Below, piece after piece: positions 16,401-47,577 of a stretch of DNA of 64,000 nt; the stretch's first letter is position 1; each line of letters starts with the position of its first letter. Origin of the DNA: Squalus acanthias (lineage: Eukaryota); assembly GCA_030390025.1 (NCBI GenBank), contig JASTWF010000033.1, positions 2,110,001 to 2,174,000 on the forward strand, in the 5' to 3' direction. The notes under the pieces were generated by a model. The model did not search any database. It was given only the letters and a program-made list of their open reading frames with translations, and was not told the origin of the DNA. The position numbers were made by a program, and so were the translations under genes.

Positions 16401-19400
16401 CGTGCTGTACCTGCCCTGGGAGTGTTTGATGGGACAGTGTAGAGGGAGCTTTACTCTGTATCTAACCCGTGCTGTACCTGCCCTGGGAGTGTTTGATGGG
16501 ACAGTGTAGAGGGAGCTTTACTCTGTATCTAACCCGTGCTGTACCTGCCCTGGGAGTGTTTGATGGGACAGTGTAGAGGGAGCTTTACTCTGTATCTAAC
16601 CCGTGCTGTACCTGCCCTGGGAGTGTTTGATGGGACAGTGTAGAGGGAGCTTTACTCTGTATCTAACCCGTGCTGTACCTGCCCTGGGAGTGTTTGATGG
16701 GACAGTGTAGAGGGAGCTTTACTCTGTATCTAACCCGTGCTGTACCTGCCCTGGGAGTGTTTGATGGGACAGTGTAGAGGGAGCTTTACTCTGTATCTAA
16801 CCCGTGCTGTACCTGCCCTGGGAGTGTTTGATGGGACAGTGTAGAGGGAGCTTTACTCTGTATCTAACCCGTGCTGTACCTGCCCTGGGAGTGTTTGATG
16901 GGACAGTGTAGAGGGAGCTTTACTCTGTATCTAACCCGTGCTGTACCTGCCCTGGGAGTGTTTGATGGGACAGTGTAGAGGGAGCTTTACTCTGTATCTA
17001 ACCCGTGCTGTACCTGCCCTGGGAGTGTTTGATGGGACAGTGTAGAGGGAGCTTTACTCTGTATCTAACCCGTGCTGTACCTGCCCTGGGAGTGTTTGAT
17101 GGGACAGTGTAGAGGGAGCTTTACTCTGTATCTAACCCGTGCTGTACCTGCCCTGGGAGTGTTTGATGGGACAGTGTAGAGGGAGCTTTACTCTGTATCT
17201 AACCCGTGCTGTACCTGCCCTGGGAGTGTTTGATGGGACAGTGTAGAGGGAGCTTTACTCTGTATCTAACCCGTGCTGTACCTGCCCTGGGAGTGTTTGA
17301 TGGGACAGTGTAGAGGGAGCTTTACTCTGTATCTAACCCGTGCTGTACCTGCCCTGGGAGTGTTTGATGGGACAGTGTAGAGGGAGCTTTACTCTGTATC
17401 TAACCCGTGCTGTACCTGCCCTGGGAGTGTTTGATGGGACAGTGTAGAGGGAGCTTTACTCTGTATCTAACCCGTGCTGTACCTGCCCTGGGAGTGTTTG
17501 ATGGGACAGTGTAGAGGGAGCTTTACTCTGTATCTAACCCGTGCTGTACCTGCCCTGGGAGTGTTTGATGGGACAGTGTAGAGGGAGCTTTACTCTGTAT
17601 CTAACCCGTGCTGTACCTGCCCTGGGAGTGTTTGATGGGACAGTGTAGAGGGAGCTTTACTCTGTATCTAACCCGTGCTGTACCTGCCCTGGGAGTGTTT
17701 GATGGGACAGTGTAGAGGGAGCTTTACTCTGTATCTAACCCGTGCTGTACCTGCCCTGGGAGTGTTTGATGGGACAGTGTAGAGGGAGCTTTACTCTGTA
17801 TCTAACCCGTGCTGTACCTGCCCTGGGAGTGTTTGATGGGACAGTGTAGAGGGAGCTTTACTCTGTATCTAACCCGTGCTGTACCTGCCCTGGGAGTGTT
17901 TGATGGGACAGTGTAGAGGGAGCTTTACTCTGTATCTAACCCGTGCTGTACCTGCCCTGGGAGTGTTTGATGGGACAGTGTAGAGGGAGCTTTACTCTGT
18001 ATCTAACCCGTGCTGTACCTGCCCTGGGAGTGTTTGATGGGACAGTGTAGAGGGAGCTTTACTCTGTATCTAACCCGTGCTGTACCTGCCCTGGGAGTGT
18101 TTGATGGGACAGTGTAGAGGGAGCTTTACTCTGTATCTAACCCGTGCTGTACCTGCCCTGGGAGTGTTTGATGGGACAGTGTAGAGGGAGCTTTACTCTG
18201 TATCTAACCCGTGCTGTACCTGCCCTGGGAGTGTTTGATGGGACAGTGTAGAGGGAGCTTTACTCTGTATCTAACCCGTGCTGTACCTGCCCTGGGAGTG
18301 TTTGATGGGACAGTGTAGAGGGAGCTTTACTCTGTATCTAACCCGTGCTGTACCTGCCCTGGGAGTGTTTGATGGGACAGTGTAGAGGGAGCTTTACTCT
18401 GTATCTAACCCGTGCTGTACCTGCCCTGGGAGTGTTTGATGGGACAGTGTAGAGGGAGCTTTACTCTGTATCTAACCCGTGCTGTACCTGCCCTGGGAGT
18501 GTTTGATGGGACAGTGTAGAGGGAGCTTTACTCTGTATCTAACCCGTGCTGTACCTGCCCTGGGAGTGTTTGATGGGACAGTGTAGAGGGAGCTTTACTC
18601 TGTATCTAACCCGTGCTGTACCTGCCCTGGGAGTGTTTGATGGGACAGTGTAGAGGGAGCTTTACTCTGTATCTAACCCGTGCTGTACCTGCCCTGGGAG
18701 TGTTTGATGGGACAGTGTAGAGGGAGCTTTACTCTGTATCTAACCCGTGCTGTACCTGCCCTGGGAGTGTTTGATGGGACAGTGTAGAGGGAGCTTTACT
18801 CTGTATCTAACCCGTGCTGTACCTGCCCTGGGAGTGTTTGATGGGACAGTGTAGAGGGAGCTTTACTCTGTATCTAACCCGTGCTGTACCTGCCCTGGGA
18901 GTGTTTGATGGGACAGTGTAGAGGGAGCTTTACTCTGTATCTAACCCGTGCTGTACCTGCCCTGGGAGTGTTTGATGGGACAGTGTAGAGGGAGCTTTAC
19001 TCTGTATCTAACCCGTGCTGTACCTGCCCTGGGAGTGTTTGATGGGACAGTGTAGAGGGAGCTTTACTCTGTATCTAACCCGTGCTGTACCTGCCCTGGG
19101 AGTGTTTGATGGGACAGTGTAGAGGGAGCTTTACTCTGTATCTAACCCGTGCTGTACCTGCCCTGGGAGTGTTTGATGGGACAGTGTAGAGGGAGCTTTA
19201 CTCTGTATCTAACCCGTGCTGTACCTGCCCTGGGAGTGTTTGATGGGACAGTGTAGAGGGAGCTTTACTCTGTATCTAACCCGTGCTGTACCTGCCCTGG
19301 GAGTGTTTGATGGGACAGTGTAGAGGGAGCTTTACTCTGTATCTAACCCGTGCTGTACCTGCCCTGGGAGTGTTTGATGGGACAGTGTAGAGGGAGCTTT

Positions 19401-22400
19401 ACTCTGTATCTAACCCGTGCTGTACCTGCCCTGGGAGTGTTTGATGGGACAGTGTAGAGGGAGCTTTACTCTGTATCTAACCCGTGCTGTACCTGCCCTG
19501 GGAGTGTTTGATGGGACAGTGTAGAGGGAGCTTTACTCTGTATCTAACCCGTGCTGTACCTGCCCTGGGAGTGTTTGATGGGACAGTGTAGAGGGAGCTT
19601 TACTCTGTATCTAACCCGTGCTGTACCTGCCCTGGGAGTGTTTGATGGGACAGTGTAGAGGGAGCTTTACTCTGTATCTAACCCGTGCTGTACCTGCCCT
19701 GGGAGTGTTTGATGGGACAGTGTAGAGGGAGCTTTACTCTGTATCTAACCCGTGCTGTACCTGCCCTGGGAGTGTTTGATGGGACAGTGTAGAGGGAGCT
19801 TTACTCTGTATCTAACCCGTGCTGTACCTGCCCTGGGAGTGTTTGATGGGACAGTGTAGAGGGAGCTTTACTCTGTATCTAACCCGTGCTGTACCTGCCC
19901 TGGGAGTGTTTGATGGGACAGTGTAGAGGGAGCTTTACTCTGTATCTAACCCGTGCTGTACCTGCCCTGGGAGTGTTTGATGGGACAGTGTAGAGGGAGC
20001 TTTACTCTGTATCTAACCCGTGCTGTACCTGCCCTGGGAGTGTTTGATGGGACAGTGTAGAGGGAGCTTTACTCTGTATCTAACCCGTGCTGTACCTGCC
20101 CTGGGAGTGTTTGATGGGACAGTGTAGAGGGAGCTTTACTCTGTATCTAACCCGTGCTGTACCTGCCCTGGGAGTGTTTGATGGGACAGTGTAGAGGGAG
20201 CTTTACTCTGTATCTAACCCGTGCTGTACCTGCCCTGGGAGTGTTTGATGGGACAGTGTAGAGGGAGCTTTACTCTGTATCTAACCCGTGCTGTACCTGC
20301 CCTGGGAGTGTTTGATGGGACAGTGTAGAGGGAGCTTTACTCTGTATCTAACCCGTGCTGTACCTGCCCTGGGAGTGTTTGATGGGACAGTGTAGAGGGA
20401 GCTTTACTCTGTATCTAACCCGTGCTGTACCTGCCCTGGGAGTGTTTGATGGGACAGTGTAGAGGGAGCTTTACTCTGTATCTAACCCGTGCTGTACCTG
20501 CCCTGGGAGTGTTTGATGGGACAGTGTAGAGGGAGCTTTACTCTGTATCTAACCCGTGCTGTACCTGCCCTGGGAGTGTTTGATGGGACAGTGTAGAGGG
20601 AGCTTTACTCTGTATCTAACCCGTGCTGTACCTGCCCTGGGAGTGTTTGATGGGACAGTGTAGAGGGAGCTTTACTCTGTATCTAACCCGTGCTGTACCT
20701 GCCCTGGGAGTGTTTGATGGGACAGTGTAGAGGGAGCTTTACTCTGTATCTAACCCGTGCTGTACCTGCCCTGGGAGTGTTTGATGGGACAGTGTAGAGG
20801 GAGCTTTACTCTGTATCTAACCCGTGCTGTACCTGCCCTGGGAGTGTTTGATGGGACAGTGTAGAGGGAGCTTTACTCTGTATCTAACCCGTGCTGTACC
20901 TGCCCTGGGAGTGTTTGATGGGACAGTGTAGAGGGAGCTTTACTCTGTATCTAACCCGTGCTGTACCTGCCCTGGGAGTGTTTGATGGGACAGTGTAGAG
21001 GGAGCTTTACTCTGTATCTAACCCGTGCTGTACCTGCCCTGGGAGTGTTTGATGGGACAGTGTAGAGGGAGCTTTACTCTGTATCTAACCCGTGCTGTAC
21101 CTGCCCTGGGAGTGTTTGATGGGACAGTGTAGAGGGAGCTTTACTCTGTATCTAACCCGTGCTGTACCTGCCCTGGGAGTGTTTGATGGGACAGTGTAGA
21201 GGGAGCTTTACTCTGTATCTAACCCGTGCTGTACCTGCCCTGGGAGTGTTTGATGGGACAGTGTAGAGGGAGCTTTACTCTGTATCTAACCCGTGCTGTA
21301 CCTGCCCTGGGAGTGTTTGATGGGACAGTGTAGAGGGAGCTTTACTCTGTATCTAACCCGTGCTGTACCTGCCCTGGGAGTGTTTGATGGGACAGTGTAG
21401 AGGGAGCTTTACTCTGTATCTAACCCGTGCTGTACCTGCCCTGGGAGTGTTTGATGGGACAGTGTAGAGGGAGCTTTACTCTGTATCTAACCCGTGCTGT
21501 ACCTGCCCTGGGAGTGTTTGATGGGACAGTGTAGAGGGAGCTTTACTCTGTATCTAACCCGTGCTGTACCTGCCCTGGGAGTGTTTGATGGGACAGTGTA
21601 GAGGGAGCTTTACTCTGTATCTAACCCGTGCTGTACCTGCCCTGGGAGTGTTTGATGGGACAGTGTAGAGGGAGCTTTACTCTGTATCTAACCCGTGCTG
21701 TACCTGCCCTGGGAGTGTTTGATGGGACAGTGTAGAGGGAGCTTTACTCTGTATCTAACCCGTGCTGTACCTGCCCTGGGAGTGTTTGATGGGACAGTGT
21801 AGAGGGAGCTTTACTCTGTATCTAACCCGTGCTGTACCTGCCCTGGGAGTGTTTGATGGGACAGTGTAGAGGGAGCTTTACTCTGTATCTAACCCGTGCT
21901 GTACCTGCCCTGGGAGTGTTTGATGGGACAGTGTAGAGGGAGCTTTACTCTGTATCTAACCCGTGCTGTACCTGCCCTGGGAGTGTTTGATGGGACAGTG
22001 TAGAGGGAGCTTTACTCTGTATCTAACCCGTGCTGTACCTGCCCTGGGAGTGTTTGATGGGACAGTGTAGAGGGAGCTTTACTCTGTATCTAACCCGTGC
22101 TGTACCTGCCCTGGGAGTGTTTGATGGGACAGTGTAGAGGGAGCTTTACTCTGTATCTAACCCGTGCTGTACCTGCCCTGGGAGTGTTTGATGGGACAGT
22201 GTAGAGGGAGCTTTACTCTGTATCTAACCCGTGCTGTACCTGCCCTGGGAGTGTTTGATGGGACAGTGTAGAGGGAGCTTTACTCTGTATCTAACCCGTG
22301 CTGTACCTGCCCTGGGAGTGTTTGATGGGACAGTGTAGAGGGAGCTTTACTCTGTATCTAACCCGTGCTGTACCTGCCCTGGGAGTGTTTGATGGGACAG

Positions 22401-25400
22401 TGTAGAGGGAGCTTTACTCTGTATCTAACCCGTGCTGTACCTGCCCTGGGAGTGTTTGATGGGACAGTGTAGAGGGAGCTTTACTCTGTATCTAACCCGT
22501 GCTGTACCTGCCCTGGGAGTGTTTGATGGGACAGTGTAGAGGGAGCTTTACTCTGTATCTAACCCGTGCTGTACCTGCCCTGGGAGTGTTTGATGGGACA
22601 GTGTAGAGGGAGCTTTACTCTGTATCTAACCCGTGCTGTACCTGCCCTGGGAGTGTTTGATGGGACAGTGTAGAGGGAGCTTTACTCTGTATCTAACCCG
22701 TGCTGTACCTGCCCTGGGAGTGTTTGATGGGACAGTGTAGAGGGAGCTTTACTCTGTATCTAACCCGTGCTGTACCTGCCCTGGGAGTGTTTGATGGGAC
22801 AGTGTAGAGGGAGCTTTACTCTGTATCTAACCCGTGCTGTACCTGCCCTGGGAGTGTTTGATGGGACAGTGTAGAGGGAGCTTTACTCTGTATCTAACCC
22901 GTGCTGTACCTGCCCTGGGAGTGTTTGATGGGACAGTGTAGAGGGAGCTTTACTCTGTATCTAACCCGTGCTGTACCTGCCCTGGGAGTGTTTGATGGGA
23001 CAGTGTAGAGGGAGCTTTACTCTGTATCTAACCCGTGCTGTACCTGCCCTGGGAGTGTTTGATGGGACAGTGTAGAGGGAGCTTTACTCTGTATCTAACC
23101 CGTGCTGTACCTGCCCTGGGAGTGTTTGATGGGACAGTGTAGAGGGAGCTTTACTCTGTATCTAACCCGTGCTGTACCTGCCCTGGGAGTGTTTGATGGG
23201 ACAGTGTAGAGGGAGCTTTACTCTGTATCTAACCCGTGCTGTACCTGCCCTGGGAGTGTTTGATGGGACAGTGTAGAGGGAGCTTTACTCTGTATCTAAC
23301 CCGTGCTGTACCTGCCCTGGGAGTGTTTGATGGGACAGTGTAGAGGGAGCTTTACTCTGTATCTAACCCGTGCTGTACCTGCCCTGGGAGTGTTTGATGG
23401 GACAGTGTAGAGGGAGCTTTACTCTGTATCTAACCCGTGCTGTACCTGCCCTGGGAGTGTTTGATGGGACAGTGTAGAGGGAGCTTTACTCTGTATCTAA
23501 CCCGTGCTGTACCTGCCCTGGGAGTGTTTGATGGGACAGTGTAGAGGGAGCTTTACTCTGTATCTAACCCGTGCTGTACCTGCCCTGGGAGTGTTTGATG
23601 GGACAGTGTAGAGGGAGCTTTACTCTGTATCTAACCCGTGCTGTACCTGCCCTGGGAGTGTTTGATGGGACAGTGTAGAGGGAGCTTTACTCTGTATCTA
23701 ACCCGTGCTGTACCTGCCCTGGGAGTGTTTGATGGGACAGTGTAGAGGGAGCTTTACTCTGTATCTAACCCGTGCTGTACCTGCCCTGGGAGTGTTTGAT
23801 GGGACAGTGTAGAGGGAGCTTTACTCTGTATCTAACCCGTGCTGTACCTGCCCTGGGAGTGTTTGATGGGACAGTGTAGAGGGAGCTTTACTCTGTATCT
23901 AACCCGTGCTGTACCTGCCCTGGGAGTGTTTGATGGGACAGTGTAGAGGGAGCTTTACTCTGTATCTAACCCGTGCTGTACCTGCCCTGGGAGTGTTTGA
24001 TGGGACAGTGTAGAGGGAGCTTTACTCTGTATCTAACCCGTGCTGTACCTGCCCTGGGAGTGTTTGATGGGACAGTGTAGAGGGAGCTTTACTCTGTATC
24101 TAACCCGTGCTGTACCTGCCCTGGGAGTGTTTGATGGGACAGTGTAGAGGGAGCTTTACTCTGTATCTAACCCGTGCTGTACCTGCCCTGGGAGTGTTTG
24201 ATGGGACAGTGTAGAGGGAGCTTTACTCTGTATCTAACCCGTGCTGTACCTGCCCTGGGAGTGTTTGATGGGACAGTGTAGAGGGAGCTTTACTCTGTAT
24301 CTAACCCGTGCTGTACCTGCCCTGGGAGTGTTTGATGGGACAGTGTAGAGGGAGCTTTACTCTGTATCTAACCCGTGCTGTACCTGCCCTGGGAGTGTTT
24401 GATGGGACAGTGTAGAGGGAGCTTTACTCTGTATCTAACCCGTGCTGTACCTGCCCTGGGAGTGTTTGATGGGACAGTGTAGAGGGAGCTTTACTCTGTA
24501 TCTAACCCGTGCTGTACCTGCCCTGGGAGTGTTTGATGGGACAGTGTAGAGGGAGCTTTACTCTGTATCTAACCCGTGCTGTACCTGCCCTGGGAGTGTT
24601 TGATGGGACAGTGTAGAGGGAGCTTTACTCTGTATCTAACCCGTGCTGTACCTGCCCTGGGAGTGTTTGATGGGACAGTGTAGAGGGAGCTTTACTCTGT
24701 ATCTAACCCGTGCTGTACCTGCCCTGGGAGTGTTTGATGGGACAGTGTAGAGGGAGCTTTACTCTGTATCTAACCCGTGCTGTACCTGCCCTGGGAGTGT
24801 TTGATGGGACAGTGTAGAGGGAGCTTTACTCTGTATCTAACCCGTGCTGTACCTGCCCTGGGAGTGTTTGATGGGACAGTGTAGAGGGAGCTTTACTCTG
24901 TATCTAACCCGTGCTGTACCTGCCCTGGGAGTGTTTGATGGGACAGTGTAGAGGGAGCTTTACTCTGTATCTAACCCGTGCTGTACCTGCCCTGGGAGTG
25001 TTTGATGGGACAGTGTAGAGGGAGCTTTACTCTGTATCTAACCCGTGCTGTACCTGCCCTGGGAGTGTTTGATGGGACAGTGTAGAGGGAGCTTTACTCT
25101 GTATCTAACCCGTGCTGTACCTGCCCTGGGAGTGTTTGATGGGACAGTGTAGAGGGAGCTTTACTCTGTATCTAACCCGTGCTGTACCTGCCCTGGGAGT
25201 GTTTGATGGGACAGTGTAGAGGGAGCTTTACTCTGTATCTAACCCGTGCTGTACCTGCCCTGGGAGTGTTTGATGGGACAGTGTAGAGGGAGCTTTACTC
25301 TGTATCTAACCCGTGCTGTACCTGCCCTGGGAGTGTTTGATGGGACAGTGTAGAGGGAGCTTTACTCTGTATCTAACCCGTGCTGTACCTGCCCTGGGAG

Positions 25401-28400
25401 TGTTTGATGGGACAGTGTAGAGGGAGCTTTACTCTGTATCTAACCCGTGCTGTACCTGCCCTGGGAGTGTTTGATGGGACAGTGTAGAGGGAGCTTTACT
25501 CTGTATCTAACCCGTGCTGTACCTGCCCTGGGAGTGTTTGATGGGACAGTGTAGAGGGAGCTTTACTCTGTATCTAACCCGTGCTGTACCTGCCCTGGGA
25601 GTGTTTGATGGGACAGTGTAGAGGGAGCTTTACTCTGTATCTAACCCGTGCTGTACCTGCCCTGGGAGTGTTTGATGGGACAGTGTAGAGGGAGCTTTAC
25701 TCTGTATCTAACCCGTGCTGTACCTGCCCTGGGAGTGTTTGATGGGACAGTGTAGAGGGAGCTTTACTCTGTATCTAACCCGTGCTGTACCTGCCCTGGG
25801 AGTGTTTGATGGGACAGTGTAGAGGGAGCTTTACTCTGTATCTAACCCGTGCTGTACCTGCCCTGGGAGTGTTTGATGGGACAGTGTAGAGGGAGCTTTA
25901 CTCTGTATCTAACCCGTGCTGTACCTGCCCTGGGAGTGTTTGATGGGACAGTGTAGAGGGAGCTTTACTCTGTATCTAACCCGTGCTGTACCTGCCCTGG
26001 GAGTGTTTGATGGGACAGTGTAGAGGGAGCTTTACTCTGTATCTAACCCGTGCTGTACCTGCCCTGGGAGTGTTTGATGGGACAGTGTAGAGGGAGCTTT
26101 ACTCTGTATCTAACCCGTGCTGTACCTGCCCTGGGAGTGTTTGATGGGACAGTGTAGAGGGAGCTTTACTCTGTATCTAACCCGTGCTGTACCTGCCCTG
26201 GGAGTGTTTGATGGGACAGTGTAGAGGGAGCTTTACTCTGTATCTAACCCGTGCTGTACCTGCCCTGGGAGTGTTTGATGGGACAGTGTAGAGGGAGCTT
26301 TACTCTGTATCTAACCCGTGCTGTACCTGCCCTGGGAGTGTTTGATGGGACAGTGTAGAGGGAGCTTTACTCTGTATCTAACCCGTGCTGTACCTGCCCT
26401 GGGAGTGTTTGATGGGACAGTGTAGAGGGAGCTTTACTCTGTATCTAACCCGTGCTGTACCTGCCCTGGGAGTGTTTGATGGGACAGTGTAGAGGGAGCT
26501 TTACTCTGTATCTAACCCGTGCTGTACCTGCCCTGGGAGTGTTTGATGGGACAGTGTAGAGGGAGCTTTACTCTGTATCTAACCCGTGCTGTACCTGCCC
26601 TGGGAGTGTTTGATGGGACAGTGTAGAGGGAGCTTTACTCTGTATCTAACCCGTGCTGTACCTGCCCTGGGAGTGTTTGATGGGACAGTGTAGAGGGAGC
26701 TTTACTCTGTATCTAACCCGTGCTGTACCTGCCCTGGGAGTGTTTGATGGGACAGTGTAGAGGGAGCTTTACTCTGTATCTAACCCGTGCTGTACCTGCC
26801 CTGGGAGTGTTTGATGGGACAGTGTAGAGGGAGCTTTACTCTGTATCTAACCCGTGCTGTACCTGCCCTGGGAGTGTTTGATGGGACAGTGTAGAGGGAG
26901 CTTTACTCTGTATCTAACCCGTGCTGTACCTGCCCTGGGAGTGTTTGATGGGACAGTGTAGAGGGAGCTTTACTCTGTATCTAACCCGTGCTGTACCTGC
27001 CCTGGGAGTGTTTGATGGGACAGTGTAGAGGGAGCTTTACTCTGTATCTAACCCGTGCTGTACCTGCCCTGGGAGTGTTTGATGGGACAGTGTAGAGGGA
27101 GCTTTACTCTGTATCTAACCCGTGCTGTACCTGCCCTGGGAGTGTTTGATGGGACAGTGTAGAGGGAGCTTTACTCTGTATCTAACCCGTGCTGTACCTG
27201 CCCTGGGAGTGTTTGATGGGACAGTGTAGAGGGAGCTTTACTCTGTATCTAACCCGTGCTGTACCTGCCCTGGGAGTGTTTGATGGGACAGTGTAGAGGG
27301 AGCTTTACTCTGTATCTAACCCGTGCTGTACCTGCCCTGGGAGTGTTTGATGGGACAGTGTAGAGGGAGCTTTACTCTGTATCTAACCCGTGCTGTACCT
27401 GCCCTGGGAGTGTTTGATGGGACAGTGTAGAGGGAGCTTTACTCTGTATCTAACCCGTGCTGTACCTGCCCTGGGAGTGTTTGATGGGACAGTGTAGAGG
27501 GAGCTTTACTCTGTATCTAACCCGTGCTGTACCTGCCCTGGGAGTGTTTGATGGGACAGTGTAGAGGGAGCTTTACTCTGTATCTAACCCGTGCTGTACC
27601 TGCCCTGGGAGTGTTTGATGGGACAGTGTAGAGGGAGCTTTACTCTGTATCTAACCCGTGCTGTACCTGCCCTGGGAGTGTTTGATGGGACAGTGTAGAG
27701 GGAGCTTTACTCTGTATCTAACCCGTGCTGTACCTGCCCTGGGAGTGTTTGATGGGACAGTGTAGAGGGAGCTTTACTCTGTATCTAACCCGTGCTGTAC
27801 CTGCCCTGGGAGTGTTTGATGGGACAGTGTAGAGGGAGCTTTACTCTGTATCTAACCCGTGCTGTACCTGCCCTGGGAGTGTTTGATGGGACAGTGTAGA
27901 GGGAGCTTTACTCTGTATCTAACCCGTGCTGTACCTGCCCTGGGAGTGTTTGATGGGACAGTGTAGAGGGAGCTTTACTCTGTATCTAACCCGTGCTGTA
28001 CCTGCCCTGGGAGTGTTTGATGGGACAGTGTAGAGGGAGCTTTACTCTGTATCTAACCCGTGCTGTACCTGCCCTGGGAGTGTTTGATGGGACAGTGTAG
28101 AGGGAGCTTTACTCTGTATCTAACCCGTGCTGTACCTGCCCTGGGAGTGTTTGATGGGACAGTGTAGAGGGAGCTTTACTCTGTATCTAACCCGTGCTGT
28201 ACCTGCCCTGGGAGTGTTTGATGGGACAGTGTAGAGGGAGCTTTACTCTGTATCTAACCCGTGCTGTACCTGCCCTGGGAGTGTTTGATGGGACAGTGTA
28301 GAGGGAGCTTTACTCTGTATCTAACCCGTGCTGTACCTGCCCTGGGAGTGTTTGATGGGACAGTGTAGAGGGAGCTTTACTCTGTATCTAACCCGTGCTG

Positions 28401-31400
28401 TACCTGCCCTGGGAGTGTTTGATGGGACAGTGTAGAGGGAGCTTTACTCTGTATCTAACCCGTGCTGTACCTGCCCTGGGAGTGTTTGATGGGACAGTGT
28501 AGAGGGAGCTTTACTCTGTATCTAACCCGTGCTGTACCTGCCCTGGGAGTGTTTGATGGGACAGTGTAGAGGGAGCTTTACTCTGTATCTAACCCGTGCT
28601 GTACCTGCCCTGGGAGTGTTTGATGGGACAGTGTAGAGGGAGCTTTACTCTGTATCTAACCCGTGCTGTACCTGCCCTGGGAGTGTTTGATGGGACAGTG
28701 TAGAGGGAGCTTTACTCTGTATCTAACCCGTGCTGTACCTGCCCTGGGAGTGTTTGATGGGACAGTGTAGAGGGAGCTTTACTCTGTATCTAACCCGTGC
28801 TGTACCTGCCCTGGGAGTGTTTGATGGGACAGTGTAGAGGGAGCTTTACTCTGTATCTAACCCGTGCTGTACCTGCCCTGGGAGTGTTTGATGGGACAGT
28901 GTAGAGGGAGCTTTACTCTGTATCTAACCCGTGCTGTACCTGCCCTGGGAGTGTTTGATGGGACAGTGTAGAGGGAGCTTTACTCTGTATCTAACCCGTG
29001 CTGTACCTGCCCTGGGAGTGTTTGATGGGACAGTGTAGAGGGAGCTTTACTCTGTATCTAACCCGTGCTGTACCTGCCCTGGGAGTGTTTGATGGGACAG
29101 TGTAGAGGGAGCTTTACTCTGTATCTAACCCGTGCTGTACCTGCCCTGGGAGTGTTTGATGGGACAGTGTAGAGGGAGCTTTACTCTGTATCTAACCCGT
29201 GCTGTACCTGCCCTGGGAGTGTTTGATGGGACAGTGTAGAGGGAGCTTTACTCTGTATCTAACCCGTGCTGTACCTGCCCTGGGAGTGTTTGATGGGACA
29301 GTGTAGAGGGAGCTTTACTCTGTATCTAACCCGTGCTGTACCTGCCCTGGGAGTGTTTGATGGGACAGTGTAGAGGGAGCTTTACTCTGTATCTAACCCG
29401 TGCTGTACCTGCCCTGGGAGTGTTTGATGGGACAGTGTAGAGGGAGCTTTACTCTGTATCTAACCCGTGCTGTACCTGCCCTGGGAGTGTTTGATGGGAC
29501 AGTGTAGAGGGAGCTTTACTCTGTATCTAACCCGTGCTGTACCTGCCCTGGGAGTGTTTGATGGGACAGTGTAGAGGGAGCTTTACTCTGTATCTAACCC
29601 GTGCTGTACCTGCCCTGGGAGTGTTTGATGGGACAGTGTAGAGGGAGCTTTACTCTGTATCTAACCCGTGCTGTACCTGCCCTGGGAGTGTTTGATGGGA
29701 CAGTGTAGAGGGAGCTTTACTCTGTATCTAACCCGTGCTGTACCTGCCCTGGGAGTGTTTGATGGGACAGTGTAGAGGGAGCTTTACTCTGTATCTAACC
29801 CGTGCTGTACCTGCCCTGGGAGTGTTTGATGGGACAGTGTAGAGGGAGCTTTACTCTGTATCTAACCCGTGCTGTACCTGCCCTGGGAGTGTTTGATGGG
29901 ACAGTGTAGAGGGAGCTTTACTCTGTATCTAACCCGTGCTGTACCTGCCCTGGGAGTGTTTGATGGGACAGTGTAGAGGGAGCTTTACTCTGTATCTAAC
30001 CCGTGCTGTACCTGCCCTGGGAGTGTTTGATGGGACAGTGTAGAGGGAGCTTTACTCTGTATCTAACCCGTGCTGTACCTGCCCTGGGAGTGTTTGATGG
30101 GACAGTGTAGAGGGAGCTTTACTCTGTATCTAACCCGTGCTGTACCTGCCCTGGGAGTGTTTGATGGGACAGTGTAGAGGGAGCTTTACTCTGTATCTAA
30201 CCCGTGCTGTACCTGCCCTGGGAGTGTTTGATGGGACAGTGTAGAGGGAGCTTTACTCTGTATCTAACCCGTGCTGTACCTGCCCTGGGAGTGTTTGATG
30301 GGACAGTGTAGAGGGAGCTTTACTCTGTATCTAACCCGTGCTGTACCTGCCCTGGGAGTGTTTGATGGGACAGTGTAGAGGGAGCTTTACTCTGTATCTA
30401 ACCCGTGCTGTACCTGCCCTGGGAGTGTTTGATGGGACAGTGTAGAGGGAGCTTTACTCTGTATCTAACCCGTGCTGTACCTGCCCTGGGAGTGTTTGAT
30501 GGGACAGTGTAGAGGGAGCTTTACTCTGTATCTAACCCGTGCTGTACCTGCCCTGGGAGTGTTTGATGGGACAGTGTAGAGGGAGCTTTACTCTGTATCT
30601 AACCCGTGCTGTACCTGCCCTGGGAGTGTTTGATGGGACAGTGTAGAGGGAGCTTTACTCTGTATCTAACCCGTGCTGTACCTGCCCTGGGAGTGTTTGA
30701 TGGGACAGTGTAGAGGGAGCTTTACTCTGTATCTAACCCGTGCTGTACCTGCCCTGGGAGTGTTTGATGGGACAGTGTAGAGGGAGCTTTACTCTGTATC
30801 TAACCCGTGCTGTACCTGCCCTGGGAGTGTTTGATGGGACAGTGTAGAGGGAGCTTTACTCTGTATCTAACCCGTGCTGTACCTGCCCTGGGAGTGTTTG
30901 ATGGGACAGTGTAGAGGGAGCTTTACTCTGTATCTAACCCGTGCTGTACCTGCCCTGGGAGTGTTTGATGGGACAGTGTAGAGGGAGCTTTACTCTGTAT
31001 CTAACCCGTGCTGTACCTGCCCTGGGAGTGTTTGATGGGACAGTGTAGAGGGAGCTTTACTCTGTATCTAACCCGTGCTGTACCTGCCCTGGGAGTGTTT
31101 GATGGGACAGTGTAGAGGGAGCTTTACTCTGTATCTAACCCGTGCTGTACCTGCCCTGGGAGTGTTTGATGGGACAGTGTAGAGGGAGCTTTACTCTGTA
31201 TCTAACCCGTGCTGTACCTGCCCTGGGAGTGTTTGATGGGACAGTGTAGAGGGAGCTTTACTCTGTATCTAACCCGTGCTGTACCTGCCCTGGGAGTGTT
31301 TGATGGGACAGTGTAGAGGGAGCTTTACTCTGTATCTTACCCGTGCTGTACCCTGCCTGGGAGTGTTGATGGGACCAAGTAGAGTGAGGCTTTACTCTGT

Positions 31401-34400
31401 ATCTAACCCATGCTGTAGCTGCCCTGATTTTTTCATGGCCCCTGTGCAGAGGGAGCTTTACTCTGTTTCTAACCGTGCTGTACCTGCCCTGGGAGTGTTT
31501 GAGGGGACAGTGTAGAGGGAGCTTTACTCTGTATCTAACCCGTGCTGTACCTGCCCTGGACAGTTTGATGGGACAGTGTAGAGGGAGCTTTACTCTGTAT
31601 CTAACCCGTGCTGTACCTATCCTGGGAGTGTTTGATGGGGACAGTGTGGAGGGAGCTTTACTCTGTATCTAACCCGTGCTGTACCTGCCCTGGGAGTGTT
31701 TGATGGGACATTGTAGAGGGAGCTTTGCTCGGTATCTCAGCTGTGCTGTACCTGCCCTGGGAGTGTTTGATGGGACAGTGTAGAGGGAGCTTTACTTCAT
31801 ATCTAACCCGTGGTGCACCTGCCCTGGTCGTGTTTGATGGGGACAGTGTCGAGGGAGCTTTACTCGGTATCCAGCCCGTGCTGTTGCTGCACTAGCAGTG
31901 TTTGATGGGACAGTGCGGAGGGAGCTTTACTATGTATCTAACCCGTGCTGTACCTGCCCTGGGAGTGTTTGATGGGACAGTGCAGAGGGAGCTTTACTTG
32001 GTATCCAACCCATGCTGGACCTGCCCTGGGAGTGTTTGATGGGGACAGTGTAGAGGGAGCTTTACTCTGTATCTTACCCATGCTGTACCTGCCCTGGGAG
32101 TGTTTGATGGGACAGAGTAGAGGGAGCTAACTCTATATCTTACCCGTGCTGTACCTGCCCTGGAAGTGTTTGTTGGGCCTGTGTTGAGGGAGCTTTACTC
32201 TGTATCTAACCCGTGCGGTACCTGCCCTGGGAGTGTTTGATGGGCCAGTGTGGAGGGAGCTTTACTCTGTATCTAACCCGTGCTGTACCTGCCCTGGGAG
32301 TGTTTGAAGGGGACAGTGCAGAGGGAGCTTTACTCTGTATCTAACCCGTGCTGTACCTGCCCTGGGAGTGTTTGATGGGACAATGCAGAGGGAGCTTTAC
32401 TTGGTATCAAACCCATGCTGGACCTGCCCTGGGAGTGTTTGATGGGGACAGTGTAGAGGGAGCTTTACTCTGTATCTAACCCGTGCTGTACCTATCCTGG
32501 GAGTGTTTGACGGGACAGTGCAGAGGGAGCTTTACTTGGTATCAAACCCATGCTGTACCTGCCCTGGGAGTGTTTGATGGGACAGTGTAGAGGGAGCTTT
32601 TCTCTGTATCTAACCCGTGCTGCTCCTGCCCTGGGAGTATTTGATGAGACAGTGCAGAGGGAGCTTTACTCTGTATCTAACCTGTGCTGTACCTGCCCTG
32701 GGAGTGTTTGTTGTGTCAGTGTGGAGGGAGCTTTACTCTGTATCTAACCCGTGCTGTACCTGCCCTGGGAGTGCTTGATGGGGACAGTGTAGAGGGAGCT
32801 TTACTCTGTATCTAACCCGTGCTGTACCTTCCCTGGGAGTGTTTGATGGGACAGTGTAGAGGGAGCTTTACTCGGTATCTTACCCGTGCTGCACCTGCCC
32901 TGGTAGTGTTTGATGGGGACAGTGCAGAGGGAGCTTTACTCTGTATCTAACCCGTGCTGTACCTGACCTGTGAGTGTGTGATGGGCCTGTGTAGAGGGAG
33001 CTTTACTTTGTATCTAACCCGTGCTGTACCTGCCCTGGGAGTGTTTGATGGGGACAGCGTAGAGGGAGCTTTACTCTGTATCTAACCCGTGCTGTACCTG
33101 CCCTGGCTGTGTTTGATGGGACAGTGTAGATGGAGCTTTACTCTGTATCTAACCCGTGCTGCACCTGCCCTGGTAGTGTTTGATGGGGACAGTGCAGAGG
33201 GAGCTTTACTCTGTATCAAACCCATGCTGTACCTGAACTGGTAGTGTTTGATGTGACAGTGTAGAGGGAGCTTTACTCGGTATCTAACCCGTGCTGTATC
33301 TGCCCTGGCAGTGTTTGATAGGACAGTGTGGAGGGAGATTTACTCTGTATCTAACCCGTGATGTACCTGCCCTGGGAGTGTTTGAAGGGGACAGTGTAGA
33401 GGGAGCTTTACTCTGTATCTAACCCGTGCTGCACTGCCTTGGGAGTGTTTGAATGGACAATGTAGAGGGAGCTTTACTCTGTATCTAACCCATGCTGTAC
33501 CTGGCCTGGGTGTGTTTGATGGGCCTGTGTAGAGGGAGCTTTACTCTGCATCTAACCCGTGCGGTACCTGCCCTGGGAGTGTTTGATGGGACAGTGTAGA
33601 GGGAGCTTTACTCTATATCTGACCCGTGCTGTACCTGCCCTGGGAGTGTTTGTTGGGACAGTGTGGAGGGAACTTTACTCTGTTTCTAACCCGTGCTGTA
33701 CCTGCCCTGGGAGTGTTTGATGGAACAGTGTAGAGGGAGCTTTACTCTGTATCTAACCCGTGCTGTACCTGCCCTGGGAGTGTTTGATGGGACGGTTTCG
33801 AGTGAGCTTTACTCTGTATCTAACCCGTGCTGTACCTGCCCTGGGAGTGTTTGATGGGACAGTGTAGAGGGAGCTTTACTCTCTATTTGACCCGTGCTGC
33901 ACCTGCCCTGGAAGTGTTTGATGGGACAGTGTAGAGGGAACTTTACATTGTATCTAACCTATGCTGTACCTGCCCTGGGAGTGTTTGATGAGACAGTGTC
34001 GAGGGAGCTTTGCTCTGTATCTAACCTGTGCTGTACCTGCCCTGGGGGTGTTTGATGGGAGAGTGTCGAGTGAGATTTACTCTGTATCTAACCCGTGCTG
34101 TCCCTGCCCTGGGAGTGTTTGATGGGACGGTTTCGAGTGAGCTTTACTCTGTATCTAACCCGTGCTGTACCTGCCCTGGGAGTGTTTGATGGGACAGTGT
34201 CGAGGGAGCTTTACTCTGTATCTAACCCGTGCTGTACCTACCCTGGGAGTGTTTGGTGGGACAGTGTAGAGGGAGCTTTACTTTGTATCGAACCCGTGCG
34301 GTACCTGCCCTGGGAGTGTTTGATGGGACAGTGTAGAGGGAGCTTTACTCTGTATCTAACCCGTGCTGTACCTGCCCTGGCAGTGTTTGATGGGACAGTG

Positions 34401-36884
34401 TAGATGGTGCTTTACTCTGTATCTAACCCGTGCTGCACCTGCCCTGGTCGTGCTTGATGGGGACAGTGCAGAGGGAGCTTTACTCGGCATCTAACCCATG
34501 CTGCACCTGAACTGGTAGTGTTTGATGTGACAGTGCAGAGGGAGATTTGCTCTGTATCTAACCCGTGCTGTATCTGCCCTGGCAGTGTTTGATGGGACAG
34601 TGTGGAGGGAGATTTGCTCTGTATCTAACCCGTGATGTACCTGCCCTGGGAGTGTTTGAAGGGGACAGTGCAGAGGGAGCTTTACTCTGTATCTCACCCG
34701 TGCTGTACCTGCCTTGGGAGTGTTTGATGGGACAATGTAGAGGTAGCTTTACTCTGTATCTAACCCGTGCTGTACCTGTCCTGGGAGTGTTTGATGGGAC
34801 AATTTAGAGGGAGCTTTACTCTGTATCTAACCCATGCTGTAGCTGCCCTGGGAGTTTTTCATGGCCCTCTGTAGAGGGAGCTTTACTCTGTTTCTAACCC
34901 ATGCTGTACCTGGCGTGGGTGTGTTTGATGGGCCTGTGTAGAGGGAGCTTTACTCTGTATCTAACCCGTGCTGTACCTGCCCTGGGAGTGTTTGATGGGA
35001 CAGTGTAGAGGGAGCTTTACTCTGTATCTGACCCATGCTGTACCTGCCCTGGGAGTGTTTGATGGGACAGTGTAGAGGGAGTTTTACTCTGTATCTAACC
35101 CGTGCGGTACCTGCCCTGGGAGTGTTTGATGGGACAGTGTAGAGGGAGCTTTACTCTGTATCTAACCCGTGCTGTACCTGTCCTGGCAGTGTTTGATGGG
35201 ACAGTGTAGAGGTAGCTTTACTCTGTATCTAACCCGTGCTGTACCTACCCTGGGAGTTTTTCATGGCCCTGTGCAGAGGGAGCTTTGCTCAGTATCTAAC
35301 CCATGCTGCACCTACCCTGGTAGTGTTTGATGGGAACAGTGCAGAGGGAGCTTTACTCGGTATCTAACCCGTGCTGCACCTGCCCTGGTAGTGTTTGATA
35401 GTGACAGTGCAGAGGGAGCTTTACTCGGTATCTCACCCGTGCTGTACCTGCCCTGGGAGTCTTTGATAGGACAGTGTGGAGGGAGCTTTACTCTGTATCT
35501 AACCCGTGATGTACCTGCCCTGGGAGTGTTTGAAGGGGACAGTGTAGAGGGAGCTTTACTCTGTATCTAACCCGTGCTGTACCTATCCTGGGAGTGTTTG
35601 ATGGGACAATGTAGAGGGAGCTTTACTCTGTATCTAACCCGTGTTGTACCTGCCCTGGGAGTGTTTGATGGGACAATGTAGAGGGAGCTTTACTCTGTAT
35701 CGAACCCATGCTGTTCCTGCCCTGGGAGTGTTTGATGGGACAGTGTAGAGGGAGCTTTACTCTGTATCTAACCCGTGCTGTACCTGCCCTGGCAGTGTTT
35801 GATGGGCCTGTGTAGAGGGAGCTTTACTCTGTATCTAACCCATGCTGTACCTGGCCTGGGAGTGTTTGATGGGCCTGTGTAGAGGGAGCTTTACTCTGTA
35901 TCTAATCCGTGCGGTACCTGCCCTGGCAGTGTTTGATGGGACAGTGTGGAGGGAGATTTGCTCTGTATCTCACCCTTGATGTACCTGCCCTGGGAGTGTT
36001 TGAAGGGGACAGTGCAGAGGGAGCTTTACTCTGTATCTCACCCGTGCTGTACCTGCCTTGGGAGTGTTTGATGGGACAATGTAGAGGTAGCTTTACTCTG
36101 TATCTAACCCGTGCTGTACCTGTCCTGGGAGTGTTTGATGGGACAATTTAGAGGGAGCTTTACTCTGTATCTAACCCATGCTGTAGCTGCCCTGGGAGTT
36201 TTTCATGGCCCTGTGTAGAGGGAGCTTTACTCTGTTTCTAACCCATGCTGTACCTGGCGTGGGTGTGTATGATGGGCCTGTGTAGAGGGACCTTTACTCG
36301 GTATCTAACCCGTGCTGTACCTGCCCTGGGAGTGTTTGATGGGGACAGTGTAGAGGGAGCTTTACTCTGTATCTAACCTGTGCTGCACCTGCCCTGGGAG
36401 TGTTTGATGGGGACAGTGTAGAGGGAGCTTTACTCTGTATCTAAACCCCTGCTGTACCTGCCCTGGGAGTGTTTGCTGGGACATTGTAGAGGGAGCTTCA
36501 CTCGGTATCTAACCCGTGCTGTACCTGCCCTGGGAGTGTTTGATGGGACAGTGTAGAGGGAGCTTTACTCGGTATCTAACCCGTGCTGTACCTGCCCTGG
36601 GAGTGTTTGATGGGACAGTGTAGAGGGAGCTTTGCTCAGTGTCTAACCCATGCTGCACCTGCCCTGGTATTGTTTGATGGGGACAGTGCAGAGGGAGCTT
36701 TACTCGGTATCTAACCCGTGCTGTACCTGCCCTGGTAGTGTTTGATGGGGACAGTGCAGAGGGAGCTTTACTCGGTATCTAACCCGTGCTGTACCTGCCC
36801 TGGTAGTGTTTGATGGGGACAGTGCAGAGGGAGCTTTACTCGGTATCTTCCCCGTGCTGTACCTGCCCTGGCAGTCTTTGATAG
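7439..36884 (+). repeat. 67-bp satellite (GGGAGTGTTTGATGGGACAGTGTAGAGGGAGCTTTACTCTGTATCTAACCCGTGCTGTACCTGCCCT), about 440 copies
   Basis: Direct periodicity. Indel-noisy at 7439-11330 and 13330-13820, apparently invariant at about 13820-31330, substitution-diverged at 31330-36884. Confidence 0.98.
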
Positions 36885-38097
36885 AATTGAGAGGCCGCAC
36901 AACACCAGGTTATAGTCCAACAGTTTTATTTGAAATCACAAGCTTTCGGAGCTATCGATTGCCCCTTCCTCAGGTGAAGTAAATAGATACAGAATGGCCA
37001 AAGCATATATAGATAGACAACAAAGCATGTGTACCTTACAATTGCAGACAACTAAATTAAATCATGCTGACTGTCTGCCGAGGTGTGATAAAGTTAATCA
37101 GGTCAGCCAGGAAGGTACCACATCAAAGACATAGCAAGATACAACTGAGACAATGAGGTGTAGTCGCAGGGGTTCTAACGTGTCAAAAGCTGCCGTCTGT
37201 ATGTAAAACGAAAAGCTTTAAAATTTTTACTTTTTTACTGGGAAAATTTTTACTTTTTTACTGGGAATCACATCTGTGAACAAGCCAACGACGACTCGAG
37301 TCTGGATCACGTCATGTATCGTGACATGAACCCAAGATCCCGGTTGAGACCGTCTTCATGAGTGCGCAACTTGGCTATCAGTTTCTGCTCAATGATTTTG
37401 CGTTGTCGTGTGTTTCTAAGGTTGCCTTGGAGAACGCTTACCCGCAGATCCGAGGCTGAATGTCCTTGACTGCTGAAGTGTTCCCCGACTGGGAGGTAAC
37501 AATCCTACCTGGCGATTGTTGCGCGGTGCTTGTTCATACGTTGTCTCAGTGTCTGCATGGTCTCGCCGATGTACCATGCCGCGGTGCATTCTTTCCTGCA
37601 ACGTATGAGGTAGACAACGTTGGCCGAGTCACATGAGTATGTACCATGTACCTGGTGGGTAGTGTCCTCACGTGTGATGGTGGTATCTGTGTTGATGATC
37701 TGGCATGTCTTGCAGAGTTTGCCGTGGCAGGGTTGTGTGGTGTCGTGGTCGCTGTTATCCTGAAAGCTGGGTAATTTGCTGCGAACGATGGTACTTCTGA
37801 GGTTAGGCGGCTGTTTGAAGGCAAGTAGTGGAGGCGTGGGGATGGCCTTCGTGAGGTGTTTGTCGTCATCGATGACATGTTGAAGGCTGCGAAGAACATG
37901 GCGTAGTTTCTCCGCTCCGGGGAAGTACTGGACGACGTAGGGTACCCTGTTGGTTGTGTCCCGTGTTTGTCTTTTGAGGAGGTCTATGCGATTTTTCGCT
38001 GTGGCCCGTCGGAACTGTCGATCGATGAGTCGAGCGTCATATCCCGTTCTTACGAGGGCGTTTTTCAGCGTCCGTAGGTGTCCATCGCGTTCCTCCT
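36885..38097 (-). mobile_element. 5'-truncated Penelope-like retroelement (RT thumb/linker and GIY-YIG endonuclease), with a 13-bp TSD
   Basis: The minus frame at 38095-37307 reads EERDGHLRTLKNALVRTGY...PCHGKLCKTC...SCDSANVVYLIRCRKECTAAWYIGETMQTLRQRMNKHR...VGEHFS...GLNRDLGFMSRYMT*, with a premature TAG at 37505-37507. CAGTCTTTGATAG flanks it at 36872-36884 and 38098-38110. AATAAA lies on - at 36925-36930. Confidence 0.92.
36936..36977 (-). ncRNA. Putative minimal type I hammerhead ribozyme at the Penelope 3' end
   Basis: Minus strand: UCAC-CUGAGGA-A-GGGGC-AAUCGAUA-GCUCC-GAAA-GC-UU-GUGA. It has the core boxes CUGANGA and GAAA, a 5-bp stem II, a 4-bp stem I and a palindromic AGCU in place of stem III. 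Confidence 0.65.
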
Positions 38098-39978
38098 CAG
38101 TCTTTGATAGGACAGTGTGGAGGGAGATTTACTCTGTATCTAACCCGTGATGTACCTGCCCTGGGAGTATTTGAAGGGGACAGTGTCGAGGGAGCTTTAC
38201 TCTGTATCTAACCCGTGCTGTACCTATCCTGGGAGTGTTTGATGGGACAATGTAGAGGGAGCTTTACTCTGTATCTAACCTGTGCTGTGCCTGCCCTGGG
38301 AGTGTTTAATGGGACAATGTAGAGGGAGCTTTACTCTGTATCTAACCCATGCTGTACCTGCCCTGGGAGTGTTTGATGGGACAATGTAGAGGGAGCTTTA
38401 CTCTGTATCTAACCCATGCTGTACCTGCCCTGGGCGTGTTTGATGGGGACAGTGTAGAGGGAGCTTTACTCTGTATCTAACCCATGCTGCACCTGCCCTG
38501 GGTGTGTTTGATGGGACAGTGCAGAGGGAGCTTTACTCTGTTTCTAACGCATGCTGTACCTGCCCTGGGAGTGTTTGATGGGGTCAGTGTAGAGGGAGCT
38601 TTACTCTGTATCTGACCCATGCTGTACCTACCCTGGGAGTGTTTGATTGGCCTGTGTGGAGGGAGCTTTACTCTGTATCTAACCTATGCTGTACCTGGCC
38701 TGGGAGTGTTTGATTGGCCTGTGTAGAGGGAGCTTTACTCTGTCTCTAACCCGTGCGGTACCTGCCCTGGGAATGTTTGATGGGACAGTGTCGAGGGAGT
38801 TTTACTCTGTATCTAACCCGTGCTGTACCTGCCCTGGCAGTGTTTGATGGGACAATGTGGAGGGAGCTTTACTCTGTATCTAACCCGTGCTGTACCTGCC
38901 CTGGGAGTGTTTGATGGGCCTGTGTCGAGGGAGCTTTACTCTGTATCTAACCTGTGCTGTACCTGCCCTGGGAGTGTTTGATGGGACAGTGTAGAGGGAG
39001 CTTTACTCTGTATCTAACCCGTGCTGTACCTGCCCTGTGAGTGTTTGATGTGACAGTGTAGAGGGAGCTTTAATCTGTATCTAACCCGTGCTGTACCTGC
39101 CCTGGGAGTGTTTGATGGGGACAGTGTAGAGGGAGCTTTACTCTGTATCTAACCCGTGCTGTACCTGCCCTGGGAGTGCTTGATGGGGACAGTGTAGAGG
39201 GAGCTTTACTCTGTATCTAACCCGTGCTGTACCTGCCCTGGGAGTGTTTGATGGGACAGTGCAGAGGGAGCTTTACTCTGTATCTAACCCGTGCTGTACC
39301 TGCCCTGGGAGTGTTTGATGGGACAGTGTAGAGGGAGCTTTACTGTGCTTCTAACCCATGCTGTACCTGCCCTGGGAGTATTTGTTGTGTCAGTGTAGAG
39401 GGAGCTTTACTCTGTATCTAACCCATGCTGTACCTGCCCTGGGAGTGTTTGATGGGCCTGTGTTGAGGGAGTTTTACTTTGTATCTAACCCGTGCTGTAC
39501 CTGCCCTGGGAGTGTTTGATGGGGACAGTGCAGAGGGAGCTTTACTCTATCTAACCCATGCTGTACCTGCCCTGGGAGTGTTTGATGGGGACAGTGTAGA
39601 GGGAGCTTTACTCGGTATCTAACCTGTGCTGTACCTGCCCTGGGAGTGTTTGATGGGCCTGTGTTGAGGGAGCTTTACTCTGTATCTAACCCATGCTTTA
39701 CCTGCCCTGGGAGTGTTTGATGGGACAGTGTCGAGGGAGCTTTACTCTGTATCTAACCCGTGCTGTACCTGCCCTGGGAGTGTTTGATGGGACAGTGTAG
39801 TGGGAGCTTTCCTCTGTATCTAACCCGTGCTGTACCTGCCCTGGGAGTGTTTGATGGGACATTGTAGAGGGAGCTTTACTCTGTATCTAACCCGTGCTGT
39901 ACCTGCCCTGGGAGTGTTTGATGGGCTGTGTAGAGGGAGCTTTACTCTGTATCTAACCCGTGCTGTACCTGTCCTGGG
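38098..39978 (+). repeat. 67-bp satellite, diverged continuation after the Penelope insertion, about 28 copies
   Basis: Same unit, resuming in register at the TSD. Confidence 0.97.
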
Positions 39979-40276
39979 ACTGTGGAGAGGGATGTCAGGT
40001 CCAGGTACAATTTCATTTTTACCATCACTTGCACCAAGTATCACACACTGGAGGTTTATATCAGGAGCTTCTGTGTGATGGTGAGGTGATCACTGGACAA
40101 TAAAGTGCAGAGACTGGTGGGTGGCTGCTCATTATCCTCGGTGTGATTTAATCCCCTTTCCCACTGAATACTGCGGACAGACAGGACCACCTTGGGAACG
40201 GAATGGTCAGTGTGACATCACTTTCTAAACAAGAGCCCACAAGACAATGGGTTCTCAATAAATGTTAAAGGGATTC

Positions 40277-40845
40277 AAAGGCAAATGGTATGTTGGCCTT
40301 CATAGCGAGAGGATTCGAGTGCAGGAGCAAGGATGTCTTGCTGCAGTTGTACAGGGCCTTGGTGAGACCATACCTTGAGTATTGTGTGCAGTTTTGGTCG
40401 CCTTATCTGAGGAAGGATGTTCTTGCCATGGAGGGAGTGCAGCGAAGATTCACCAGACTGATACCTGGGATGGCAGGAATGACGTATGAGGAGAGATTGG
40501 GTCGATTCGGCTTGTATTTGCTAGAGTTTAGAAGAATGAGAGGGGATCTCATTGAAACTTATAAAATTCTAACAGGAATCGACAGACTAGATGCAGGAAG
40601 AATGTTCCCGATGGCCGGGGAGTCCAGAACCAGAGCTCACAGTCTAAGGATAAGGGGTAAGCCATTTTGGACTGAGATAAGGAGGAATTTCTTCACCCAG
40701 AGAGTGGTGAACCTGTGGAATTCTCTACCACAGAAGGCAGTTGAGGCCAATTCATTAAATATATTCAAGAAGAAGTTAGATATATTTCTTAAGGCTAAAG
40801 GGATATGGGGAGAAAGCAGGGACAGGGTACTGAATTTGGATGGTC
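40277..40845 (+). mobile_element. CR1 LINE 3' fragment (ORF2 C-terminus)
   Basis: LYRALVRPYLEYCVQFWSP, RRMRGDLIETYK and FFTQRVVNLWNSLP motifs. Confidence 0.93.
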
Positions 40846-40853
40846 CGACATGC

Positions 40854-40973
40854 AACATAGAAGATAGGAGCAGGAGTAGGCCATTCGGCCCCTCTAGCCT
40901 GCTCCGCCATTCGATGAGATCATGGCTGATCATCCAAATTCAGTGCCCTGTCCCTGCTATCTCCCCATATCCC
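40854..40973 (-). mobile_element. Inverted CR1 3' UTR and tail
   Basis: aacatagaagataggagcaggagtaggccattcggcccctctagcctgctccgccattc is the reverse complement of the CR1 3' UTR type seen on + at 49718-49808. Confidence 0.85.
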
Positions 40974-42731: not shown

Positions 42732-42781
42732 CCAGGATATCGGGTCAGGCCCACCTTGTAAAATGAGTTTGACTCCCCTAA

Positions 42782-45318: not shown

Positions 45319-45369
45319 TGAGTTGAACAGGTATTATTGTTTTTGAATAAAAATATTCCACTGCAGGAG

Positions 45370-47196: not shown

Positions 47197-47577
47197 CTGC
47201 AGGGCTTAGATTCTGCTGTTTTTGCTGCTGTTAATCACATCCAAGACTAAACCATGTTCATTCTGACAGTTGGAGTTTGTTTCTGCTGATAATAACCCCT
47301 CTAACTGGGTTGGAGTTTAATATTTTGATACCTGTCAGACAGATTAACTTTGTTTCGAACACACCGTGGGTCGAATCCTTGATTTCTCCAAGATAAGAGG
47401 AGACTAATTGATGTCCTGTTAATGACTGCTCCATTTTTGGGCCTTTTCTCTTTTCTAACTCAAGATTATTTCAGTTCTCACACCTTTAGTTACTCTCGTG
47501 CTCCAGCCGCAGCTCCCCAAACCTTCCAGAGTGCCTCTCTTAGCCTTGGTATCAAGCGACGGTTTCGGTAACATGTC

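Follow-up and report, generated by a model that had tools for sequence, protein, structure and literature searches.

Minimal hammerhead ribozymes (min-HHRs) in the pseudo-LTRs (pLTRs) of metazoan Penelope-like elements were described by Cervera and de la Pena in 2014 (PMC4209133). According to that paper they are found in Xena, Poseidon and Neptune elements from fishes, where most stand alone in truncated copies; they number about 4,000 in the coelacanth and 9,000 in Xenopus, with thousands per genome in fish, too. In vitro, the Schistosoma min-HHR was inactive as a monomer and weak as a dimer (PMC4209133), and a review credits Lunse, Weinberg and Breaker (2017) with hammerhead variants associated with Penelope-like elements that cleave as dimers. 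Cleavage is likewise dimer-dependent in non-LTR retrozymes and hammerhead satellites such as those of newt (satellite 2) and axolotl (PMC7229834; bioRxiv 10.64898/2026.07.22.740005). For PAc, the Poseidon element of Anolis carolinensis, Frangieh et al. (2024; PMC11167929) report that the hammerhead cuts only with the element's protein present, and that reverse transcription starts at two sites bounding an optional "tail", with uncut RNA as template. An optional tail of 30–40 bp is reported for endonuclease-positive elements of the Neptune clade (PMC8557442), and an optional tail also for Pen2a, an element of the rotifer Adineta vaga (PMC3846280). The promoter of D. virilis Penelope is TATA-less (PMC2377424).

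The hammerhead class and its association with Penelope-like elements are therefore already known, and the window (the whole 64-kb stretch of DNA analysed here) adds one example. Portions of the text and supplement of PMC4209133 name no cartilaginous fish, and portions of its text describe no downstream hairpin; a literature search of partial coverage, which does not establish absence from print, found no shark example and no conserved Neptune hairpin. The motif in the window is very probably a standard minimal pLTR hammerhead of a Neptune-type element, carried into satellite DNA as the passenger of a single young, 5'-truncated insertion, and at its present site it most likely does nothing. The mechanistic details considered below are less certain than this identity and passenger status.

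The hammerhead motif and its host insertion

The motif lies at 36936..36977 on the minus strand, as do all element features given below. It is a minimal type I hammerhead with a 4-bp stem I (5' strand 36977-36974, 3' strand 36939-36936), the first core box CUGAGGA (36973-36967), one extra A (36966), a stem II of 5 bp with one G-U pair and an 8-nt loop (36965-36961 with 36952-36948), and the GAAA box (36947-36944) followed by GC. Palindromic AGCU replaces stem III. U16.1 is at 36941 and U17 at 36940, and a cut is predicted between 36940 and 36939, after CUU. AAUAAA (36925-36930) begins 5 nt past stem I. An earlier note on this DNA had named these parts, AAUAAA included, and had assigned them to a minimal type I hammerhead of a Penelope-like element cut after CUU between 36940 and 36939. 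Every part was located where that note had placed it, the predicted cut agrees with its site, and the features of the class that can be checked in sequence are present.

A relaxed type I scan of both strands gave one match in 64 kb. When the 1.2-kb insert was shuffled 5,000 times with its dinucleotides kept, four of the shuffled sequences contained any match and none an equally complete one. The earlier note had proposed a check with hammerhead models; the Rfam hammerhead families gave no match at E<=10 (chance microRNA and lncRNA matches only), presumably because the Rfam models need the helix III that the minimal class lacks. The minimum-energy fold of the 42-mer contains both stems; its stability is at chance level (z −0.99; 30 of 200 shuffles as stable). 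Loop II holds a 6-nt palindrome (36959-36954) that is specific to the window's subfamily, being found in neither of the two related loci (L003 and L005, described below) that contain the motif. It predicts a stable, inactive dimer, and was rejected as an aid to catalysis on that account. Stem I can be extended past an internal loop or bulge (36985-36981 with 36931-36927; likewise L003:976-981), in the window in read-through RNA only and not in RNA starting at 36980.

The host insertion is a single copy in the window, a 5'-truncated Penelope-like element of Neptune type measuring 1,214 bp (38098-36885). Its boundaries are fixed by loose ends, the points at which contigs of other copies diverge from the window sequence, which fall at 38098 and 36885/36888. 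It sits in a 67-bp satellite array (7442..39983; 485.5 copies, 93% matches) and is flanked by a target-site duplication of 12 bp, or 13 if one base shared ambiguously with the element is counted (upstream copy 38098..38110, downstream copy 36872..36884), which bears out the earlier placement of a Penelope-like element inside satellite DNA. The duplicated satellite 13-mer is found at the array's two junctions only; its first 12 bases recur in one further satellite unit. The satellite units themselves are without hammerhead: the 485.5-unit array holds one motif, inside the insertion, and the window holds no second copy of element or hammerhead, even allowing mismatches. A retrozyme or hammerhead satellite requires at least two consecutive motif-bearing units, and this identity was rejected since the repeat unit does not carry the motif. 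The satellite is a landing site only.

The element retains the C-terminal 264 codons of its ORF (37307..38098), spanning the post-RT-core region, linker and endonuclease, followed by the 3' non-coding region or pLTR (36885..37306). Within the ORF are a C-x4-C-x2-C linker motif (37703..37729), a GIY-YIG endonuclease core (37520..37618; Pfam PF01541, E 6e-4, 20.5 bits, under the 22.6 cut-off) and an in-frame stop (37505-37507) private to the window's copy. The RT itself has been lost, and no RT is encoded. A protein search returned 33 matches among 316 candidates. The best eight are shark proteins (69%–88% identity), many matches are longer ORFs with an RVT_1 (RT) domain upstream, and the linker cysteines are invariant in all 14 aligned sequences. 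The host of the element is probably a cartilaginous fish. Under the definitions of PMC8557442 this linker is of the Neptune/Nematis type, so that the element would belong to one of these two clades, and a CX2-5CxxC linker excludes Penelope/Poseidon and Hydra. We prefer Neptune because a preprint reports only Neptune and Poseidon from vertebrates; the assignment is made by motif rather than by RT tree.

The hammerhead core lies 334 nt past the ORF end (278 nt in L003, 753 nt in L005), in the pLTR, which is the location seen in the minimal class. The partial-tandem arrangement with two pLTRs is absent, the window holding a single truncated copy, and the copy therefore cannot be active; such absence is expected for most insertions. 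By sequence comparison the copy is young: contigs of run X16 are identical to it over up to 169 nt, and about eight variants are private to it among the 40 listed of 63.

Other features of the window are recorded here for orientation. Seven stretches of rare sequence within the 67-bp array (9885-9943, 10417-10498, 13510-13563, 31343-31398, 31788-31839, 33643-33694 and 36249-36301) are divergent 67-bp units or small insertions. The same satellite forms another block, more diverged, at 47580-48500 (13.8 copies, 85%), a 36-bp array of about 397 copies runs from 49810 to 63998, and additional arrays have units of 33, 41, 49, 27 and 63 bp. Fragments of LINE-type reverse transcriptase (RVT_1) occur at 4348-5424 (minus strand) and 48474-48902 (plus strand), and two stretches at ~40260-40860 and ~42760-43190 look by eye like LINE 3' ends, with no Pfam match in the frames scanned. 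A C2H2 zinc-finger exon with frameshifts and stops (46509-47200, plus strand; Pfam zf-C2H2) is accompanied by a CpG-rich stretch at ~45360-45740. This stretch may hold the promoter of the exon, and of the candidate origins for divergent transcription heading toward the element on the minus strand it is the nearest.

Conservation in related loci and family copies

Five related loci (L001–L005; 43%–56% identity) were chosen by protein alone. Two of the five, L003 and L005, have a minimal hammerhead 3' of the ORF, and these are the only two that reach far enough: the contigs of L001, L002 and L004 stop 73, 500 and 679 nt past the ORF stop, and the final bases of L004 align with L005 immediately upstream of the L005 hammerhead. 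Across the window, L003 and L005 the core differs at N7 and N17 only, the positions left free by the hammerhead consensus. N17 reads U, U and A, as the exclusion of G at this site demands, and U16.1 and both core boxes are intact. None of the three loci shows a change in the extra A, G10.1-C11.1 or AGCU, so the palindrome to which the earlier note had drawn attention is preserved. AAUAAA is found in L005 and not in L003. Inverted pieces of the element, typical of Penelope-like insertions, were seen at the 5' side of three relatives (L003:3-185 and L001:3-134, both minus strand, and L005:1-86, the last by eye).

All 26 stem cells are paired across the three loci. Two pairs change on both sides, one per stem (U-A to A-U in stem I; G-U, C-G and A-U across loci in stem II), whereas six slid controls gave 22%–48% pairing and no two-sided change in any. 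Both stems thus show the covariation that the earlier note had suggested looking for, but it is not significant alone, because there are three sequences only and a shuffle control matched it in 55 of 500 cases. That note had also made conservation of the core relative to the flanks a deciding point, and here the L003/L005 comparison came out in its favour. By blastn, the hammerhead and the motif that follows it are the only non-coding parts similar to these loci, and the 200 nt upstream score near the shuffled level (6/200 and 58/200 shuffles as high).

These comparisons bear on whether the resemblance to a hammerhead is accidental. The motif has few bases and a fold no stabler than that of shuffled sequence, and similar letter patterns do turn up in large collections: searching for the motif pattern alone gave three matches in prokaryote genomes and 14 in viral contigs. 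In none of these 17, which served as a negative control and of which none is linked to the element, do both stems form. Protein searches of viral contigs found no relatives, and none came from a pattern search for the downstream motif or from blastn of plasmids. Given the strict shuffles, the same motif in the same place in both informative relatives, the failed stem test of the chance matches and the pairing and covariation comparison, we regard chance resemblance as refuted and its probability as negligible.

A different question is whether the motif persists chiefly through a role in protein binding or folding within the pLTR and cuts seldom or never. CUU is a poor cleavage triplet, a point in favour of this idea. 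So are the reports of weak activity in vitro for this class (PMC4209133) and the success of Naiad elements, which thrive without canonical hammerheads (PMC8557442). Yet conservation falls on precisely the positions needed for catalysis, the two variable positions are those on which catalysis does not depend, and position 17 is G at none of the three loci. We judge this explanation quite unlikely, and prefer to regard the motif as a standard min-HHR.

Variation among family copies was assessed in four runs from three coded organisms; contig depth, which is not copy number, served qualitatively only. In X1, 13,150 contigs mapped to the family, and 15 of the 24 runs listed contain half or more of its sequence words; two runs recorded as RNA contain only 7%–8% and were not used as evidence. 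Among the 40 of 63 variants listed, the sole one inside the motif is at 36960, in loop II. All four runs cover 36880-36963 more deeply than the next bin, by a factor of 6 to 28. Loose ends at 36951-36952 (22 contigs, X1) represent other subfamilies with identical boxes in register and a different stem II and loop. In X8, a 13-contig consensus of loose ends at 36952 (agreement 0.8) has CUGCGGA as its first box, possibly an altered-core subfamily or a consensus artefact, and one contig of X6 has CCGACGA.

Element 3' end, candidate promoter and possible RNA cutting

With no poly(A), the copy comes to its end at 36885, which is 55 nt beyond the predicted cut and 51 nt beyond stem I. The RNA that served as template must therefore have been unbroken at the cut site: it had either stayed uncut or been re-ligated there. 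The earlier note had put the motif at the 3' end of the element, and on this point it needs correcting, as the end lies 51 nt beyond stem I; the ribozyme was accordingly rejected as the element's 3' end. Use of AAUAAA as the end for insertion was also rejected, since poly(A) is absent, the copy runs on for 40 nt after it and L003 has no such signal.

What follows the hammerhead is the 5' half (36885..36921) of a conserved hairpin, with its 5' arm at 36921-36914. The window's copy stops between the arms, before the 3' arm, and is thus without a tail. L003 and L005 share the 8-nt motif that the window has at 36921-36914, and in both the 3' strand of the hairpin begins exactly 46 nt later. Pair probabilities exceed 0.9 at eight of eight and seven of eight positions, respectively, folding z-scores are −3.2 and −2.0, and the inner end changes from U-A to G-C between the two loci. 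Loose ends in X1 and X6 contain a candidate 3' arm pairing at seven of eight positions, about 48 nt on, in a consensus whose agreement is just 0.57. By analogy with PAc, whose reverse transcription is initiated in a stem-loop on the 3' side of its hammerhead (PMC11167929), this hairpin is probably a reverse-transcription start signal.

Upstream, a TATA-like box at 37004..37011 precedes an initiator-like A (36980) by 31 nt. The same spacing is seen in L003, and L005 is without the TATA box (two of three loci); the pattern arose in 13 of 20,000 shuffles, in a test devised after it had been spotted. From its sequence the pair would seem to be a candidate pLTR promoter. We tentatively suggest, while thinking it likelier to fail than to hold as a whole, that the Neptune-type pLTR end is a compact module of TATA/initiator, hammerhead and hairpin, kept at ~50% protein identity. 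In such a module, which rests on three sequences, transcription would start 3 nt before the hammerhead, the ribozyme would remove a ~41-nt capped leader from element RNA, and a covarying hairpin of ~55 nt, 16–29 nt past the cut, would be the start signal for reverse transcription. If true, the hairpin explains both tailed and tail-less copies, and solo copies could drive and decap transcripts running into satellite DNA.

In intact tandem elements, transcription would most likely start just upstream of the hammerhead; two hammerheads would pair through AGCU and cut slowly, probably aided by the element protein; and reverse transcription would initiate at the downstream hairpin, on a template unbroken at the cut site. 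By nearest-neighbour energies the catalytic dimer is not the preferred form, being predicted at −20.1 kcal/mol versus −21.0 for two monomers and about −32 for the inactive loop-II dimer.

The alternative way to obtain a continuous template is re-ligation: hammerheads in both pLTRs would excise a unit-length RNA, and the ligated circle would be the template for insertion. This was proposed in PMC4209133 and shown for related retrozymes in PMC7229834; the re-ligated junction restores an intact hammerhead, and the anatomy of the window's copy fits equally well. For the anole element, however, mutants defective in cleavage inserted as usual in vitro, and the cut coincided with neither the start nor the end of any RNA-seq read (PMC11167929), and no re-ligation-type joint is among the loose ends listed, though contigs cannot show one. 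A circular template thus appears doubtful.

The earlier note had further suggested that the motif could cut read-through satellite RNA. In that case minus-strand RNA would be cut when the transcript of another copy pairs with it in trans, so that the insertion processes satellite RNA; in a variant, RNA from the element's own TATA/initiator would enter 29 kb of satellite and the ribozyme would remove its 41-nt capped leader. The motif is intact and the copy young, with no private change inside the motif among the variants listed, the family is abundant, and a candidate promoter is present. Folding gives stem probabilities of 0.2–0.5 in read-through contexts, but 0.01–0.05 in two of the folds starting at 36980, although the minimum-energy fold of a longer RNA starting there retains the hammerhead stems. 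There is, however, no partner motif within 36 kb downstream or 26 kb upstream of the hammerhead, AAUAAA stands directly 3' of the motif, and the catalytic dimer is energetically disfavoured relative to monomers and inactive dimer. Minus-strand transcription is unsupported, the RNA label of X8 being a guess and the contigs strandless. Cutting of satellite RNA is therefore possible but unsupported, and we consider it improbable; an idle passenger accounts better for the motif as it stands.

Comparison with described systems

As found, the motif matters little, since thousands of such motifs per genome have already been reported. The young shark-type family, on the other hand, offers an intact and abundant example for studying the part played by the ribozyme in the life cycle of Penelope elements. 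The geometry of hairpin and start site, if general, would supply defined mutations for testing the choice of reverse-transcription start and 5' trimming in Neptune elements.

Adineta vaga Pen2a shares with the window a pLTR in which a TATA box is followed by an initiator-like TCACT, as well as a short target duplication (PMC3846280). Non-LTR retrozymes and hammerhead satellites also combine a type I hammerhead with tandem repeats, but there the ribozyme is present in every unit, whereas the window has one motif, in an inserted element (PMC7229834; bioRxiv 10.64898/2026.07.22.740005). PAc likewise has its hammerhead at the pLTR (PMC11167929). It differs in belonging to the Poseidon clade, without a CX2-5CxxC linker, and in having an ORF that starts inside the hammerhead, whereas the first box of the window, CUGAGGA, has no AUG; moreover, the activity of PAc was measured, while the cut in the window is a predicted one.

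With the Neptune clade as described by Craig et al. (2021; PMC8557442) the element has in common a C-terminal GIY-YIG domain, the CX2-5CxxC linker and 5' truncation; it departs from that description as a lone fragment with a clean 12–13 bp duplication, lying in a 67-bp satellite and not a microsatellite. The closest correspondence in the ribozyme itself is with the min-HHRs of PMC4209133: type I, no helix III, an extra base between positions 9 and 10.1, G10.1-C11.1, palindromic bases at 15.2-16.2 and a short helix I (4–5 bp) are all shared, and helix II, at 5 bp, is shorter than the 7–8 bp of Schistosoma.
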